NCBI GenBank assembly: GCA_016186045.1
Contig: JACPMJ010000005.1
Coordinates: 7,143 to 71,142 of the forward strand
Direction: 5' to 3'
Source: Candidatus Uhrbacteria bacterium
GTDB lineage: Bacteria; Patescibacteriota; Patescibacteriia; JACQRZ01
DNA length: 64,000 nucleotides
A program made the translations under genes and the position numbers. The notes beneath the pieces were generated by a model. The model saw only the letters and a list, made by a program, of their open reading frames with translations, did not search any database and was not told the origin of the DNA. Positions 19,021 through 25,537 of the stretch are shown piece after piece. Numbering within the stretch: position 1 is the first letter of the stretch; every line of letters begins with the position of its first letter.

Positions 19021-19030
19021 GTGTCATGTC

Positions 19031-19698
19031 GTTTTTTGACAACATGGCGCACCACATAAGCCGAATTCTGTATCCATCATCCGCCTCCGCCAGTTGGCGG
19101 ATAGCGGAGGTGGATGGTGACCATCACTCTATCTTCATGATTACCCATGAAGTATTGCGAGCGTCTATTGCTCTTGCATCTGGTAGGTGTTTGCCAAGCT
19201 GACACATCACTATGCCACTGGTGCGCTCTTACCGCATTTTGCATATTCTTTTTTAACTAGGAGAGTTTAAAGAACGATTTTGAATATGCAAGTATTTATT
19301 TGCGTCAACCCTTATTCGGGTATCCACACCATTTCACCCTTACCCATAGCCATCGCCTGGGCGGTATGTTGTTTCATTCAAATCATCCAAATGAAACCTT
19401 TGCGCATTCGCAAAGCTTTTCTGTTGCTCCCCTGTTTCTGAAAAATCAGAAACAGCGAAATTTGGCTCGTAAAAACCAAGACACTATCCCGTATGCCAGT
19501 CCCCTGCTTTTTTGAATAAGAAAAGGGTATTCCCCTCGTCTTGATCACATAAAAAAGAAAGAAAAAGCCATAGGTCGCTGTTAGCGACTACCCTGTTGTC
19601 CGGCAGTGCCGGACAGATGTTCGGACTTTCCTCCCCTGAATATGGAAATATATCCATTTCAAGGGCGATCACCGTGGTGCGCCATGTTGTCAAAAAAC
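19031..19698 (-). ncRNA. rnpB: RNase P RNA (bacterial type A-like, about 670 nt with large insertions)
   Basis: Minus strand carries GGGGAGGAAAGTCCGAAC (P4 5' strand), GCAACAGAAAAGC, GGGTAAGGGTGAAATGGTG, GCGGTAAGAGCGCACC, ACAGAATTCGGCTTA (P4 3' strand); ends form 25-bp perfect helix (19031-19055 / 19674-19698). Confidence 0.8.
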
Positions 19699-19755
19699 AG
19701 TATGAGATTACTATAGTACTATAGAGAAGAAAAGTCAAGGATGTGAAAAGAAAAA

Positions 19756-19839: not shown

Positions 19840-21666
19840 TTACTTGAGATTTTTTACGATCTCTTCAAGAATATCTCCGAAATTGTTCAGGCAGTCCTCC
19901 ATGGTACTGAACAAAAGTTCGGTGGGATAGATATGCGGAGTACCGTGAACCCCAATGAACATGTGAATGACGATAATGCCGGACTCCTTGAGCTCACGGG
20001 AGATTCGCGCCGCGAGCTTCAGGTCATCCGGACCGTCATCGCAGAGCATGATGAGAACTTTACGCTTTCGCTTTGACTCGCGTAGTTTTTTTGCGGCGAC
20101 CGTGAGCATGTGCGTATCCGAGTTCCCATCATCCGCGCTAATGACAACGAATGACGGGAACTTACTGGGAGGGCCGTAATCGTAGATGATTTTTGAATTG
20201 AACGCCCAGATGTTTCCCGCACACACCGGATGAAGCGCCATAATCGCCTCAGAAAAGAGAACGGCGATTTGTTTTGCTTGTTCTATCTTCTCCCCAGCCA
20301 TGGATCCGCTTCTATCAATGCAGAGATGAATCTCCGCATCAATATTTCGCTCTTCCACGATGTCTTTTAGAAATCCGGAGAGGCCTGTTGCGATGCGTGC
20401 GACCTCTCGAGTATCCAGCTCCCCCTCGTCCTGCCCATAGAGGATGTATTCGGAGGGATTTTCGAGACGCTTGAGCTTTCGCACCAGCGGCTCTACAAGA
20501 TGTTGGACCGAAGCAAGAATGCGATTATACGCGGGAGCGTGAACGCCATTTCTTGGAATGCTTTTGACGGGAACCGTATCTTCCCTGCCTACGGAATGTG
20601 GTCCGCGCGGATACGCGGCGCGCATACCTCTCATCCACTTGACGAGATTATTGAGCGCCTGATTTCTTCCTACTTTGAGAGTTCCTGCCATGATTGCATT
20701 GAGATTTCCAAGGAGTGCGGGATCCAGTGGCTCTCCCATCTCAATACTCGCGGCCAAGAGACAGAGCGCGATGAACTTTTGTTCAAATTCCTTGCGAAGA
20801 TTTTTGAGATTCTGACTCTTTCCCTGTTCCTTTTCTTTTTCATCAGGATCGCCAAGAATCGCGTGGATTTCTTGGGCGGCCCAGAGGAGATAGTCCGGTG
20901 TCGCAGTGAGAAGAAGTTTCGGAGAGATCAGTTTCATCGCCTTATGCACCTTCCTGATGCGCGGGCGCTTGTGCCACTTTGCCGCGAAGAAAAAATCTTC
21001 ATAGGCATCAGTTGGTTTCCAATTCCGAAGAATTAAGGTGATATGCGCCTCTCCTGTTTTTTGCGTCGAAAGGTTTCGAGCGCTCCGAGAGAGATTCTTT
21101 TTCTGCTTTTCTTTTTTTGCCGATATTTTCGCGTGGAGGGGTTTCGGATGCTCTGTGTTTCGTATGTATGTTGAGAGTATTTGCGCAAGGGTTTGTCTGC
21201 GCGCCATCGTGGAGACATAGGCGAGACGCCTACGCAGTGTACTCGCAAATCCCGGCGCATGGCCTGCGGTTAGGATATCATCTTTGCGATCAAGGATGAT
21301 ATTGGTGATATGTTGTAAGATATCTCCGCCAAAGTCGTACGCCTCTGCAAGAAGTTTTGTCCCATAAGGGGAAAACTTGATATGACCGCTCTCATGATAG
21401 CCGGTTCCAAAACCGACCTCCTCATGTCCTTCAGTGAAAAACCATGGAGAGATACGTACCTCGGCGATGCAATCCGTACTTGCGGTCGGAATACTTGCAT
21501 CAAAGATAAGCCGGAACGGCTTACCGATAAGCGCGGTAAGGTGATCACAGAGAATCGGAAAGACGCGTTCAAGAATCTTTTTATCCCGTTCTTCTTTTGG
21601 AAGTGCGGCCTCTATCGCCACATCCATCTGATCAAGGGTATCTTGAATACGGGAAAAAGCGTTCAT
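19840..21666 (-). CDS. von Willebrand factor A (VWA) domain protein, CobT-like architecture (about 430-aa unknown N-terminal region + C-terminal VWA)
   Basis: MIDAS motif LCIDRSGSMAG, VWA beta-alpha pattern in C-terminal third; last gene of RT-ATPase-VWA module. Confidence 0.8.
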   Translation of the reverse strand: MNAFSRIQDTLDQMDVAIEAALPKEERDKKILERVFPILCDHLTALIGKPFRLIFDASIPTASTDCIAEVRISPWFFTEGHEEVGFGTGYHESGHIKFSPYGTKLLAEAYDFGGDILQHITNIILDRKDDILTAGHAPGFASTLRRRLAYVSTMARRQTLAQILSTYIRNTEHPKPLHAKISAKKEKQKKNLSRSARNLSTQKTGEAHITLILRNWKPTDAYEDFFFAAKWHKRPRIRKVHKAMKLISPKLLLTATPDYLLWAAQEIHAILGDPDEKEKEQGKSQNLKNLRKEFEQKFIALCLLAASIEMGEPLDPALLGNLNAIMAGTLKVGRNQALNNLVKWMRGMRAAYPRGPHSVGREDTVPVKSIPRNGVHAPAYNRILASVQHLVEPLVRKLKRLENPSEYILYGQDEGELDTREVARIATGLSGFLKDIVEERNIDAEIHLCIDRSGSMAGEKIEQAKQIAVLFSEAIMALHPVCAGNIWAFNSKIIYDYGPPSKFPSFVVISADDGNSDTHMLTVAAKKLRESKRKRKVLIMLCDDGPDDLKLAARISRELKESGIIVIHMFIGVHGTPHIYPTELLFSTMEDCLNNFGDILEEIVKNLK

Positions 21667-21728
21667 GGAGTTCTCCTTTCATTGTGAAAAGTTGTCAAAG
21701 ATCTTTATGGTTATTGTAATCCTTTTTT

Positions 21729-21845
21729 AGGGAATAGAGGGTGTCATCCTGAGTGATAACGAAGGATCCCGTTGGTATCATGTTTTTAACATCGGGATTC
21801 CTCTCCGCCAGCTGGCGGATCGGAATGACATACATAGTATTCCCT
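21729..21845. repeat. A-type palindromic element copy 1 (GTCATCCTGAGTGA...GGGATTCCTCTCCGCCAGCTGGCGGATCGGAATGACATACATAGTATTCCC)
   Basis: Right 49 bp identical (1 mismatch) to 38451-38499; core CCGCCAGCTGGCGG 21805-21818. Confidence 0.8.
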
Positions 21846-22062
21846 AAAAAAGAGGGGGAACGAACGTTTTTCATTCCCCGTGGTGGAGAGGTTGGATATT
21901 TGATGGGCTGCCCCGTAGCCGGTATTCCCGCGATCGGGAATACCGTGCCGAGCCCTCGCGTTCATCGCGAGGGTGAGGGGGCCACGCTTACCCTGTTTGA
22001 CCGCAGACTCCCTGATTCTGGTACAGAATCAGATCAGCGTCCACGCAAAAGCGTATGCAGTA

Positions 22063-22116
22063 GGGTCACGTCTAAGGTGACCTACCTTTTTCGCATAGTG
22101 CAAAACGGTCAAGAAA
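22063..22116. repeat. B element copy 2 (GGGTCACGTCTAAGGTGACCTACCTTTTTCGCATAGTGCAAAACGGTCAAGAAA)
   Basis: About 90% identical to 23592-23646; contains hairpin GGTCAC-GTCTAAG-GTGACC; lies just 3' of ATPase gene. Confidence 0.7.
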
Positions 22117-22183
22117 TATCCAATGCGCCGTCTGGTACAAACGGCTCTCCCCTGTATGTGATGTGAGAAAGAAAGTTTAGAGA

Positions 22184-23341
22184 TTATGGAATCTTCATGG
22201 TAAGAGTGGCAAACGCCTTCGCCGCCTCTGTCCCGGACTTCACATCGATGGTTCCATCCTTCAAAACTTTAATGTCGGATGAATACTTATCAAGAAGTCC
22301 TCGCACGACCGCGAGTTTGAGCTTCCATCCTCCGAGCATGAGGCGCGCGGTGTTTCTGCATCCGCGATAACTCGGGGCGTATGAGATAGCGCCGGAATGC
22401 GCGAGATCGCGTATTGCTCGTGCGACCTGCACGATTGCGAGCGCGGCGCGTTCCGAGATACCCACCTCATCCTTGAGTTTTTTCACCTCGAAGTCCTCCG
22501 GCATGGACTCCACCCAAATGAATCCAAAACGATCCTGAAGAGCGGTGCCGAGAGAGAAGACGTCTTGATGCTGTGCGCCTTGATTCATGGTCCCGATGAA
22601 GTGAATATTCGGCGAGAGTCTGATCGTAACACTCCCGTCGGTCGTAGTAATAGCAATTTGCCCGGTGTCATCAAAAAGACCGTGCATACCCTGATGCGAC
22701 TTTTCATGGATGCGATTGATCTCATCCAAGATGACGAGGAAGTGCGTGTTCAGTCCTTGAGCGTATGCGATATTCGCCCGCTCTACGTAATCTGCAAAGG
22801 CGGACTTGACAAACTTTGTTGATGCATTCACTGCGGCATCGGATCCAAACATGTCGTTGCCATGCTTGATCGTCTCAATGTCCACCTTGCAGGGTTCTTG
22901 CCAGTGAAGGGCGTGAGCCACCGCATAGCCAAGGGTCGTCTTTCCGCTTCCCTTATCACCGAGAAGGATGACGTTGGTTCCATTGTTCAGCCAGTTCAAA
23001 AGCTGGCTCAACATAAGTGGATCGGTCCAGTGGCCAGGCAATTCTTTGATCTTTTGCCAGTCCGCAAGCTCCGTTTTTCTGGAAATAAGTCGCACAAACG
23101 ATGTACTCGTTCCCTTGCGACTTTTTTCTTGTCGTTCAAGTTCAACATGCCAAATATCACCATCATTGACGGCAACATTTGTCTGGTTTATCACCTGAAT
23201 CGCGGGAGGAATGTCATATTCCTCAACAAACGAAAGACAAGACACACCCTGTTCGGTGGTATGCGCTCGGGCAAGAAGTAAGTCCGCCATTATGTATCCA
23301 TCCTTTCTTTCTGTATCTTTGTAAAAGTACGGTTCCTCCAT
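22184..23341 (-). CDS. AAA+ ATPase, MoxR/CbbQ/NirQ/CobS-like, with about 110-aa N-terminal extension
   Basis: Walker A GDKGSGKTT, Walker B FLVILDEINR, sensor region IGTMNQG, arginine-rich C-terminal helical lid. Confidence 0.85.
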   Translation of the reverse strand: MEEPYFYKDTERKDGYIMADLLLARAHTTEQGVSCLSFVEEYDIPPAIQVINQTNVAVNDGDIWHVELERQEKSRKGTSTSFVRLISRKTELADWQKIKELPGHWTDPLMLSQLLNWLNNGTNVILLGDKGSGKTTLGYAVAHALHWQEPCKVDIETIKHGNDMFGSDAAVNASTKFVKSAFADYVERANIAYAQGLNTHFLVILDEINRIHEKSHQGMHGLFDDTGQIAITTTDGSVTIRLSPNIHFIGTMNQGAQHQDVFSLGTALQDRFGFIWVESMPEDFEVKKLKDEVGISERAALAIVQVARAIRDLAHSGAISYAPSYRGCRNTARLMLGGWKLKLAVVRGLLDKYSSDIKVLKDGTIDVKSGTEAAKAFATLTMKIP

Positions 23342-23359
23342 TTCAGATTATTAGACTCT

Positions 23360-23490
23360 GTCATTGCGAGGGATCCGCCTCCGTCTCCGCCAATTGGCGG
23401 ATGGCGGAGGTGGAAACCGTGGCAATCCCAATTAGAGATCCCTCGTCCCTCGGGGGTACTCGGGATGACATTACTTCGCTCGGGATGACA
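23360..23490. repeat. A-type-related palindromic element in reverse orientation (GTCATTGCGAGGGATCC...CCGCCAATTGGCGG...CTCGGGATGACATTACTTCGCTCGGGATGAC)
   Basis: Core CCGCCAATTGGCGG 23387-23400; reverse complement of 3' end equals GTCATCCCGAGCGAAG start of A-type element. Confidence 0.7.
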
Positions 23491-23591
23491 CACGGCGACT
23501 TTGATCCTATGGCGCAAGAAATGTTTTGTAAAGAAATGCTTGCGCGGATGGGATTTCCATTTGATCGAGGACGGCTTGATCAGATACGGTT

Positions 23592-23646
23592 GGATCACGT
23601 CTAAGGTGACCTACCTATTTCGCATGATGCAAAACGGTCAAGGAAA
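23592..23646. repeat. B element copy 1 (GGATCACGTCTAAGGTGACCTACCTATTTCGCATGATGCAAAACGGTCAAGGAAA)
   Basis: Immediately 3' of RT stop codon (23657-23659). Confidence 0.7.
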
Positions 23647-23656
23647 CTGGTATTTT

Positions 23657-24901
23657 TTATTTGAAAGGAATGGACTCGTCCGCAGTATCCTTCTTCTTGC
23701 GACTTCTGCGCCGAGGTGGCTCCTCGGTGGCAATCTGTGTTTCCGCCGAAGTTTCCGAAGTTTGCGGCTCTGGAGTGACAGCAGTCGTTTTCTTGCGTCT
23801 GCGCGGTTTCTTACCTAACTCTCCGGCAAGCTCATTGAACTTGATGGTCTTGAGCTCGGTTTCGGCTTTTTCCGTAATAGCACGAACCTTGCTTGGGAGC
23901 TTGTCAGAATAGATATGGCGAAGATAGCCGATAGTGCCGGCGATCTCTCCGTATACCTGTTTGGTGGGCTCCGCCTTGATGACCGCGAGGAGCTTGTTGA
24001 TCCTCGCGCGGAACTGGTTTAGCTTGTTTGGGGCAAGCGTAATCCGTCCGTCCGGAGCCAAAACGATTCCCGTGATCACTGGTACTGCTCCGGTTTTTGG
24101 AGTGAAGTACTTCGTCTTGTCTTTCCGTTCATGAGGAAAAAATCCATTCTTTTTCATGACGGCAAGAATCCTCTTTCGGAGCTCCCCGGGAATTTCTTCC
24201 TCAAAGGAGATCGTGAGATCATCGCACCATACCGTGATGCGATACTCCTGAAGCGGTGTGGAGTTTTCCGAGATCAGCTTCCAGATATCCTGATCCATCT
24301 TACAGCAGACGATATCAAGGATGCGTGGACTGGTCGGAGGGCCTTGCGGGAGACGGTCATGGAGACAGACGAGATCCACGAGAGACTCGAGCATCTGTTT
24401 TATCTCTTCCGCCTCGAATGTCTGTCCGGAAAATTGCTTCAGCGCAAAGGTGAAGGGTTTGCGAAGATTCGCGCGGATCCTACTCCGATAGACACTGGGA
24501 AAGGCGTTCACAATGTCGATCGAAAAGGCTCGCTCATTTCCCGCGTGGTGCTCTGCGTTTGTCTTCACACTGCACCCTCGCTGGTTCCCGTGCCTGCAGA
24601 AATGTACCGGAATGGAAATTAGAAATCTGTTAAGGATCTTTCGCTGGACGCTTTTAAGTTCATCACAGGGAGCCGCATAACGTCGTACTCCTCTGCCCGG
24701 CCCCTTTGATTCCGCCCACTCGCGGTATGCCGCCTTTTGACGAAGCTTGTCGAGACAAAAATCCCACTCCTGCGTGGAGAGATGAAGCAAGAGTCGTAAA
24801 ATTCGCGCAAGTCGTTCTGGAAGCTCCAGAACGCTCTCGAAATCCTTGTACACCCATTCTTTGGGCGTATGACGCCGACGCCGACGTGTTGAAGTCGCCA
24901 T
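23657..24901 (-). CDS. reverse transcriptase, retron-type/retron-like
   Basis: SKGPGRGVRRYAAP (motif 1), NAEHHAG (NAxxH), FSIDIVNAFPSV (motif 2), LPQGPPTSPRILDIV, VWCDD catalytic box (YADD variant), KTKYF, VITGIVL (VTG); 130-aa C-terminal extension with basic tail. Confidence 0.8.
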   Translation of the reverse strand: MATSTRRRRRHTPKEWVYKDFESVLELPERLARILRLLLHLSTQEWDFCLDKLRQKAAYREWAESKGPGRGVRRYAAPCDELKSVQRKILNRFLISIPVHFCRHGNQRGCSVKTNAEHHAGNERAFSIDIVNAFPSVYRSRIRANLRKPFTFALKQFSGQTFEAEEIKQMLESLVDLVCLHDRLPQGPPTSPRILDIVCCKMDQDIWKLISENSTPLQEYRITVWCDDLTISFEEEIPGELRKRILAVMKKNGFFPHERKDKTKYFTPKTGAVPVITGIVLAPDGRITLAPNKLNQFRARINKLLAVIKAEPTKQVYGEIAGTIGYLRHIYSDKLPSKVRAITEKAETELKTIKFNELAGELGKKPRRRKKTTAVTPEPQTSETSAETQIATEEPPRRRSRKKKDTADESIPFK

Positions 24902-25020
24902 GCGTATCCTTCCTTTCTCAATCTTTATGAAAAGAGCGATAAGAAACCTTTTGTTTTTGACACAAGGCTTCAGAATAGCTGATCACAAAAAGTGTTCAGA
25001 TATTCCGAAAACTCGAGATT

Positions 25021-25050
25021 AAAAAAGAGGACAAAATCCCCTCCTTTTTC
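25021..25050 (-). terminator. intrinsic terminator of rnhA (minus strand GGAGGGGATTTTGTCCTC + T6)
   Basis: Hairpin plus TTTTTT on minus strand, 60 nt after rnhA stop. Confidence 0.55.
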
Positions 25051-25111
25051 CCATATTTCAAAGAAACTATGGGTGTTTGAACGTTTCCTGCTTTACTCTA
25101 TCACTTCTTTA

Positions 25112-25537
25112 TTATTTTGTCAAGACCAGATGGGCATCTATCGCCATATTTACCAGCATATCCGCCTCCTTGTTTTTTTCACGAAAAATATGAGTAAATG
25201 TTATTTTTTTGAACTTTTGTTTAAGATTCCAAATTTTTAAAAATAATGGGGCGAGATTTTTATCCTTGACACGGTATATTCCATGGAGTTGTTTTACGAC
25301 AAGCTCGCTGTCTAAATAGCACCACACCTCCTGCGCATCCATCTCGTGCGCGCGCTCGAGCGCATACACCAGCGCTCGGTACTCCGCCTGATTATTTGTC
25401 GTCTCACCGATATATTTTTTGAAATGATGTTTTTCTCCTGTTTCTTTATCTTCCAAAACAATGCCGATGCCGGCGGGTCCGGGATTTCCCCGCGCGCCGC
25501 CATCGGTATGAATGATGAATGTTTTTTGATGAGACAT
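25112..25537 (-). CDS. rnhA: ribonuclease HI
   Basis: IHTDGGARGNPGPAGIGIV...NNQAEYRALVYALE...DSELVVKQ catalytic DEDD pattern. Confidence 0.85.
   Translation of the reverse strand: MSHQKTFIIHTDGGARGNPGPAGIGIVLEDKETGEKHHFKKYIGETTNNQAEYRALVYALERAHEMDAQEVWCYLDSELVVKQLHGIYRVKDKNLAPLFLKIWNLKQKFKKITFTHIFREKNKEADMLVNMAIDAHLVLTK

Follow-up and report, generated by a model that had tools for sequence, protein, structure and literature searches.

We describe here a three-gene locus on a stretch of 64,000 nucleotides from Candidatus Uhrbacteria bacterium (contig JACPMJ010000005.1; the whole stretch is called the window in the following). With a probability of roughly 0.6, we consider it to be a self-contained retron-type module of bacteria of the candidate phyla radiation (CPR), which comprises a retron reverse transcriptase (RT), a tandem non-coding RNA (ncRNA), a NorQ/CbbQ-like ATPase and a protein with VWA and HExxH domains, and whose function would be based on multicopy single-stranded DNA (msDNA). 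The module is probably defensive. It was assigned to the retrons because the clade of the RT, an RNA bounded by a1/a2 repeats with an msd-like hairpin, and effector genes co-evolving with the RT fit together. Its components are located as follows:

23657-24901, minus strand: RT, by its sequence of the retron clade, 414 aa, motif C VWCDD, basic disordered tail
23291-23656, minus strand: gap 1, with a decayed ncRNA unit and insertions of REP/MITE type, as aligned to the intact units of the related loci L016 and L017
22184-23290, minus strand: MoxR-class AAA+ ATPase, NorQ/CbbQ-like according to Pfam, predicted fold and homologues (the open reading frame could also start at 23341)
21889-22126, minus strand: intact retron-like ncRNA unit of 238 nt, from an nhmmer match to the core Y, unit parsing, covariation and RNA folding
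19840-21666, minus strand: VWA protein, 608 aa, with an N-terminal HExxH domain and a C-terminal VWA domain carrying a metal ion-dependent adhesion site (MIDAS)

The three genes and their motifs, as given in an initial annotation of the window, are real. Three co-directional open reading frames (ORFs) on the minus strand were verified at 23657-24901, 22184-23341 and 19840-21666, and their translations contain every quoted motif (KGPGRGVRRYAAP, NAEHH, LPQGPPTSP, VITG, VWCDD, GDKGSGKT, FLVILDE and DRSGSMAG).

The neighbourhood of these three genes is not due to chance. A homology search with the RT delivered a hypothetical protein of a Candidatus Uhrbacteria metagenome-assembled genome (MAG) that is 100% identical, and about 80 close relatives, all of them from CPR bacteria, before identity drops sharply to 25-29%. 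For comparison, 15 genome and 41 metagenome loci were collected. Wherever the RT of a locus shares at least 39% identity with that of the window and the contig is long enough, RT, ATPase and VWA genes follow one another in this order on one strand. The informative loci with the trio amount to about 35, all from CPR/Patescibacteria and distributed over many CPR classes, with order and strand fixed. All-against-all clustering of the ORFs from the first 15 loci and the window returned RT, ATPase and VWA as the sole shared families, while the flanks differ everywhere. The outgroup loci, in which the RT has 28% identity, possess neither the ATPase nor the VWA partner. The nearest outgroup (L046-L050 and L054 from gut and other metagenomes, and the proteins P0082-P0088) consists mostly of 501-aa RTs with 25-29% identity to the window RT, some of which are named Clostridium or Clostridiaceae. 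The MAGs of L002, L003, L005, L010, L013 and L014 carry the module and are titled 'uncultured Gammaproteobacteria bacterium', which is probably a labelling artefact of submission.

The closed families also match in size, with 78 clusters for the VWA protein, 64 for the ATPase and about 80 for the RT, and the first ATPase match outside its family is of the CbbQ/NorQ type at 29% identity. Three look-ups which were begun from VWA-family proteins ended at an RT-ATPase-VWA arrangement each time, amid unrelated housekeeping genes. No ATPase or VWA family member without an RT was found in the family searches or in these look-ups. As refuting outcomes the initial annotation had named an ATPase/VWA pair existing in relatives without any RT, or a trio conserved nowhere else. 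What we found is that look-ups from the VWA family always recovered the RT and the ATPase as well, and that nothing else is conserved around the trio.

By its sequence, the window RT belongs to the retron clade, with scores below the cut-off of every curated retron family. The Pfam model RVT_1 matches just at its cut-off (30 bits). In PADLOC the best RT models were RT_XIII (123 bits), RT_VI and RT_II-A, with E-values of 1e-36 to 1e-32, and all 25 families listed, out of 35 matches, are retron or retron-like RT models. A profile search of the PDB returned retron RTs only (Ec86 at 4.6e-29) and no group II match at E-values up to 1e-3. Among the NCBIfam models only those of retrons responded, all below their own cut-offs (retron_St85_RT with 131 bits against a cut-off of 235). 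Clustering with group II intron RTs or with those of diversity-generating retroelements (DGRs), the alternative that had been named beforehand, is thus not what PADLOC, PDB and NCBIfam report. The NAxxH and VTG hallmarks noted earlier are conserved across the family, since H119, T277 and G278 are invariant or nearly so in 30 homologues. In motif C (residues 224-228) the first Asp is invariant, and the window protein has DD.

The C-terminal extension of the RT, which had been given as about 130 aa with a basic tail, is indeed basic. The tail is a variable low-complexity region, and in six homologues an RNase H domain takes its place. Such C-terminal RNase H fusions occur in the loci L008, L010, L013, L026, L036 and L037 and in the proteins P0014, P0037, P0044, P0053, P0055 and P0074. 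A separate RNase H gene upstream of the RT is confined to the window and to its near relatives L016 and L017, and in most other loci no RNase H was found nearby. The adjacent rnhA had been proposed to supply RNase H activity in cis. In view of the RT fusions in several relatives, this gene may be more than a housekeeping neighbour and is a possible accessory component of the module.

The long gaps between the genes proved to be typical of the module and conserved. Elsewhere in the family they extend to as much as 2.9 kb and contain tandem arrays of non-coding units with a period of 310-390 nt. The units are present in 1-9 tandem copies of 180-350 nt each, downstream of the RT, in gap 1 (between RT and ATPase) and gap 2 (between ATPase and VWA gene). 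The raw gaps of the window gave only marginal matches as nhmmer queries against the other loci, and the element became clear after repeat finding had exposed the arrays. A fuzzy regular expression for the unit core was discarded as too permissive. Iterated nhmmer searches of 590 kb, for which the conserved core Y served as query, gave 91 matches, all on the coding strand, 60 in the RT-ATPase gap and 31 in the ATPase-VWA gap, and none outside the two gaps or on the opposite strand. Rfam contains no known family for the gaps of the window region and of seven loci.

Each unit is built in the order a1 (6-10 nt), linker TT[CTG]C, TTGACCG, variable hairpins V1, Y, CGGTC(AA), V2, C[ACT][AG]TC[ACG]AA and a2, in which the short motif between V2 and a2 is CCAUCNAA. 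The sequences of a1 and a2 vary between units and are nevertheless complementary within each, with a mean of 6.6 contiguous base pairs compared to 2.0 for mismatched units. In the first unit of an array a1 is the sequence right after the RT stop codon, and in the last unit a2 has no local partner. The pairing therefore spans the unit, as in the msr-msd of retrons. A local pairing of the flanking stems was rejected, the outermost units of the L013 array (first and last) being decisive. Likewise, a reading of TTGAC as a -35 box with a spacer-local stem was given up, as the unit-by-unit comparison pairs TTGACCG with CGGTCAA.

The gaps hold a structured ncRNA, whose existence, position, strand and covarying secondary structure follow from these matches and from 38 units whose conserved segments were aligned. 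In this alignment, whose segments were joined by artificial linkers and whose structure was derived from the same sequences, 89.3% of the cells are paired, in comparison to 71% in shuffles and at most 45% with partners slid. Changes on both sides occur in 24 of the 30 pairs, and compensatory cells number 217 versus 67 in shuffles, with none of 500 shuffles reaching the observed values. The a1/a2 helix covaries in 10 of 10 columns. As the TTGACCG/CGGTCAA helix is nearly invariant, covariation neither confirms nor rejects it; the only invariant G near a1 lies within its UUGAC, 7 nt after a1, and is predicted to be paired.

From the sequences, the closing helix UUGACCG/CGGUCAA would enclose the variable hairpins and the Y hairpin in an msr-like domain, preceded by a short U-rich linker. 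Y is a hairpin with an internal loop in which an invariant GA faces an invariant A, and we tentatively regard it as k-turn-like. The V2 regions (median 121 nt) fold into long hairpins of high stability (mean z -4.5), which resemble an msd. The word GTNAC is enriched 6.6-fold in V2, with 15 per kb compared to 2.3 in the surrounding loci and 87 occurrences compared to 21±4 after shuffling, and may be a recognition site. Stems of V2 in L004, L012, L013, L015, L025, L030 and L036 are rich in CGT(A/T/G)ACG words, and loops of the UUCG type (CTTCGG, GCTTCGC) are frequent. After a2, a GC-rich hairpin with a T-rich tail is found in about 30 of 47 units, whereas the rest adjoin the next unit or gene. 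Copy number and V2 sequence vary strongly among loci, while orthologous units are conserved between related arrays, such as those of L013 and L036. A very recent tandem duplication is indicated in L012 (13283-14151), where a 366-nt unit is present three times with 97-100% identity; the other units of this array are highly diverged.

For the window, a search for ncRNA in 21667-22183 and 23342-23656 had been suggested, and it revealed an intact unit in gap 2 and a decayed one in gap 1. The intact unit is composed of:

22117-22126, minus strand: a1
22106-22112, minus strand: TTGACCG, preceded by the linker TTTC
22055-22116, minus strand: repeat D3, included in the V1 hairpins
about 21999-22036, minus strand: k-turn-like hairpin Y, followed by CGGTCAA
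21899-21906, minus strand: CCATCAAA, preceded by the msd-like V2 hairpins
21889-21898, minus strand: a2

It folds with -107 kcal/mol (z -6.9), and the centroid structure reproduces the proposed helices. The decayed unit keeps an a1-like CCAGT, a TTCC linker, TTGACCG and V1 hairpins including D3 (23584-23645). It has lost the hairpin Y, in agreement with the lack of any Y-core match in gap 1 of the window, and the CCATCNAA-a2 end, both of which are retained in L016 and L017. Earlier, no msr/msd had been recognised upstream of the RT. The interval 24902-25111 gave no match in our analysis either; an ncRNA nevertheless exists, but in the gaps that follow the RT. These gaps had also been described as filled with palindromic repeats and a duplicated 55-bp element. 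The repeats and the duplicate are real, but the gaps contain ncRNA units besides. The duplicated element, D3, measures 62 nt with 87% identity between 22055-22116 and 23584-23645, and is the common 5' part of the intact and the decayed unit.

The ATPase is matched by the Pfam models AAA_5 (39.9 bits) and CbbQ_C (22.4 bits). Its Walker motifs stand as first reported, but homologues place the start at M18 (window position 23290), which gives a protein of 368 aa with an N-terminal extension of about 95 instead of 110 aa. With this start, gap 1, first measured as 315 bp beside 517 bp for gap 2, becomes 366 nt. The structure model (pLDDT 87) has NorQ as best Foldseek match (E 1.5e-14, target TM 0.78-0.85), with CbbQ next to NorQ as best superposition. 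NorQ and CbbQ do not possess the N-terminal beta-rich domain of about 75 aa, which is predicted to be five-stranded (residues 1-75, window about 23066-23290) and could bind nucleic acids or a partner. W19, D45 and W47 are conserved in this domain.

For the VWA protein, Pfam delivers weak VWA and CobT_C matches under the cut-off, and the model (pLDDT 84.8) resembles most closely the VWA domain of NorD and the MIDAS domain of Rea1/MDN1. The MIDAS, already recognised in the initial annotation, is complete and invariant (D451, S453, S455, T518, D543/D544). The N-terminal region of about 430 aa, which had been left as unknown, in fact carries in a helical domain an invariant HExxH (H91, E92, H95) followed by a conserved DRKDD, and this domain appears to be zincin-like on the basis of motif and predicted secondary structure. 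By predicted fold, ATPase and VWA domain of the effector are NorQ/NorD-like.

A possible course of action of the module can be outlined. The RT would bind the msr-like domain and reverse-transcribe V2 from next to a2, giving one msDNA species per unit. RNase H, which is fused or adjacent to the RT in some lineages, would trim the template. Complexes of RT and msDNA might then hold or scaffold the effector of ATPase and VWA-protease, and interference of a phage with the msDNA would free an ATP-driven remodeller/protease, so that the infection is aborted. A bolder version, which we think doubtful, takes the divergent units as a panel of msDNAs whose GTNAC-rich stems would serve as multiplexed baits for phage enzymes that modify or degrade DNA, with the MoxR/VWA-MIDAS machine switching on the fused zinc protease. 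If this were true, ultra-small symbiotic bacteria would possess a multi-sensor retron immunity whose effector logic is not present in described retrons.

CPR bacteria are generally regarded as poor in defence systems. Their RTs have been described as mostly those of DGRs (PMC8632793). To this, the module would add a retron lineage with several template RNAs per RT, a k-turn-like RNA element and a MoxR/VWA-MIDAS/HExxH effector. If confirmed, it would extend the classification of retrons, tie MoxR-VWA remodellers to nucleic-acid-based sensing, and offer a natural design for several msDNAs from one RT, which might be useful in multiplex retron editing.

Several observations weigh against the interpretation as a defensive retron. 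Described retrons have a single ncRNA directly upstream of the RT, whereas here it follows the RT, in 1-9 divergent tandem copies interleaved with the effector genes. Retrons have an unpaired branching G just 3' of a1; in the units the only invariant G near a1, that of UUGAC, is predicted to form a base pair, in a helix too invariant for covariation to decide. About half of the RT family has Asn instead of the second Asp in motif C (xxDN). The zincin call is drawn from the motif and a predicted sheet-plus-helix secondary structure, and no fold match was obtained for this domain. Finally, the loci lie amid housekeeping genes, are syntenic in close relatives and have no copy on the viral contigs of IMG/VR, which fits a non-defence role too. 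In such a role the module would be real, but would serve housekeeping or regulation in some CPR lineages, for example msDNA-dependent assembly or remodelling of complexes by a MoxR/VWA chaperone, or DNA metabolism beside RecJ and RNase H. The flanks are ordinary, with no integrase or defence genes nearby, and in L016 and L017 (70-83% identity) the neighbourhood is fully syntenic with the window from RecJ to glycosyltransferases, the module proteins diverging at rates similar to those of the flanking ones. A search of the IMG/VR viral contigs found no family member and only remote matches to phage CobT-like VWA proteins. Moreover, the known MoxR/VWA pairs (NorQD, CbbQO, CobST) are maturation chaperones. 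Because of the housekeeping context and the vertical stability in one lineage, a non-defence role keeps a share of the probability; we nevertheless consider it unlikely. The family is rare and patchy, with about 80 clusters among billions of proteins, and occupies a different genomic position in every lineage. No client gene is co-conserved, and the strong variation of ncRNA copy number and V2 argues in the same direction. Characterised retrons, furthermore, act in phage defence.

The variable copy number, the identical recent duplicates of L012 (period 366 nt, 100%) and decayed copies such as that of gap 1 would also suit non-autonomous retroelements or satellites, similar to SINEs or retrozymes, which are copied by the RT and whose arrays grow by retro-duplication instead of serving as msDNA templates for defence. 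This is highly improbable, as units never occur outside the two gaps or on the other strand in the 590 kb searched, compensatory changes keep the structure in diverged units, orthologous units are conserved (L013/L036), and tandem duplication of DNA is a simpler source of arrays. Least probable of all is an accidental adjacency of a solitary RT retroelement and an independent pair of the NorQ/NorD or CobS/CobT type. The NorQ/NorD-like folds and the weak CobT_C matches could be taken in its favour, but the co-conservation data already contradict it: the gene order is fixed in all informative loci over many CPR classes, norCB, cobN or cbb genes are not nearby, and no member without RT was found. 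The retron-type module remains the interpretation that we prefer.

Besides the components of the module, the following features were located in its surroundings:

25112-25537, minus strand: RNase H gene, type 1 (RVT_3/RNase_H), directly upstream of the RT (Pfam RVT_3 82 bits, RNase_H 52 bits)
25095-25123, minus strand: candidate promoter-like site upstream of the RT, TTGACA-17-TAGAGT with TG, from a consensus scan
21845-21879, minus strand: hairpin GGGGAA..TTCCCC (hairpin at 21855-21879) resembling an intrinsic terminator, with CTCTTTTTT behind it, about 10 nt past a2
21722-21852, minus strand: second spacer hairpin with arms at 21722-21736 and 21838-21852, split by a REP/MITE palindrome at 21792-21830
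19087, 19798, 21805, 23387, 25573, 38460, 50600, 55312 and 60151: copies of the palindrome CCGCCANNTGGCGG

The promoter-like site is a candidate only, because the scan of the region for promoters and terminators gave an overall count not above chance. The second spacer hairpin has a counterpart ('hairpin 2') in other loci. Upstream neighbours of the trio are RNase H and RecJ according to Pfam, and downstream the RNase P RNA is recognised by the Rfam model RNaseP_bact_a, whose gathering score of 100 is not reached (65 bits). The reported position of the trio between rnhA and the RNase P RNA is correct. This RNA (19024-19705, minus strand) appears to measure about 680 nt and has large insertions with a REP palindrome inside (19080-19114) and a 32-nt P1-like pairing (arms 19024-19055 and 19674-19705), and is kept in L016 and L017 with 79-81% identity. 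The palindrome CCGCCANNTGGCGG occurs in 9 copies in the window compared to 0.1 expected, 4 of them outside the region; since copies lie far from the locus, it is a genome-wide REP/MITE-like element. Longer inverted arms often flank it, and it is also found inside the RNase P RNA and at the recJ 3' end. In gap 1 (23440-23495, minus strand) GTCATCCCGAGCGAAG...GTCATCCCGAG... repeats were observed, with an inverted match in gap 2 (21741-21756 paired with 23476-23491). They are a second type of short dispersed repeat, inserted in the decayed gap-1 unit.

With respect to known systems, the effector resembles NorQ/NorD, CbbQ/CbbO and CobS/CobT in its AAA+ fold, the CbbQ_C lid and the adjacent pair of MoxR and VWA-MIDAS proteins, with a MIDAS nearest to NorD and Rea1. 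It differs by the additional N-terminal beta domain of the ATPase, the HExxH domain and the fixed link to an RT and an ncRNA, and identity is below 30%. The client genes norCB, RubisCO/cbbLS and cobN were absent near the loci, as judged from the clustering of shared families and the gene lists of L063-L067. In the vWA-MoxR (VMAP) conflict systems of multicellular bacteria (Kaur et al. 2020, PMC7159879), the MoxR-vWA couple was proposed to act as a thresholding device. A DGR RT can be included, and in some cases the vWA component carries a fused metallopeptidase. The task of that RT, however, is to diversify a target protein, and the systems further comprise modular effectors and a third VMAP protein, whereas the module described here has a retron-like RT, no pair of template and variable repeats and no third conserved protein besides the RT. 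For a DGR, neither a repeat linking the gaps to a coding region nor a conserved small accessory ORF (Avd) was found, and the RT matches retrons; for a group II intron, Rfam gave no match in the window region and seven loci. Defence systems of the DRT and UG/Abi types (e.g. DRT2, DRT9) also possess an RT with a dedicated structured ncRNA template encoded alongside, but the RT described here matches retron or retron-like models and none of the UG/Abi type among the 25 PADLOC families listed, its ncRNA has the a1/a2 topology of retrons, and the partner proteins are different.

The classification of retrons by Mestre et al. (2020, PMC7736814) comprises 13 types and mentions neither vWA nor AAA. 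PADLOC gave no match for the VWA protein and only weak unrelated ones for the ATPase, so both sources agree with the statement in the initial annotation that a combination of RT, MoxR and VWA lies outside the described types. Within the library searched, the literature gave no description of a retron with MoxR/vWA, of a CPR retron of this kind, of tandem arrays or of a kink-turn retron RNA. Common to retrons and the module are the retron-clade RT with NAxxH and VTG, an ncRNA bounded by a1/a2 with a structured 5' part and a long variable 3' hairpin, and effector genes that co-evolve with the RT; the types I-A and I-B also have an ATPase-containing effector. Differences are the restriction of the family to CPR bacteria and RT scores under every curated retron cut-off. 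With its downstream RNA, its divergent multiple copies, its conserved k-turn-like hairpin and its effector of MoxR AAA+ ATPase and VWA-MIDAS/HExxH protein, the module is unlike any of the 13 described retron types.

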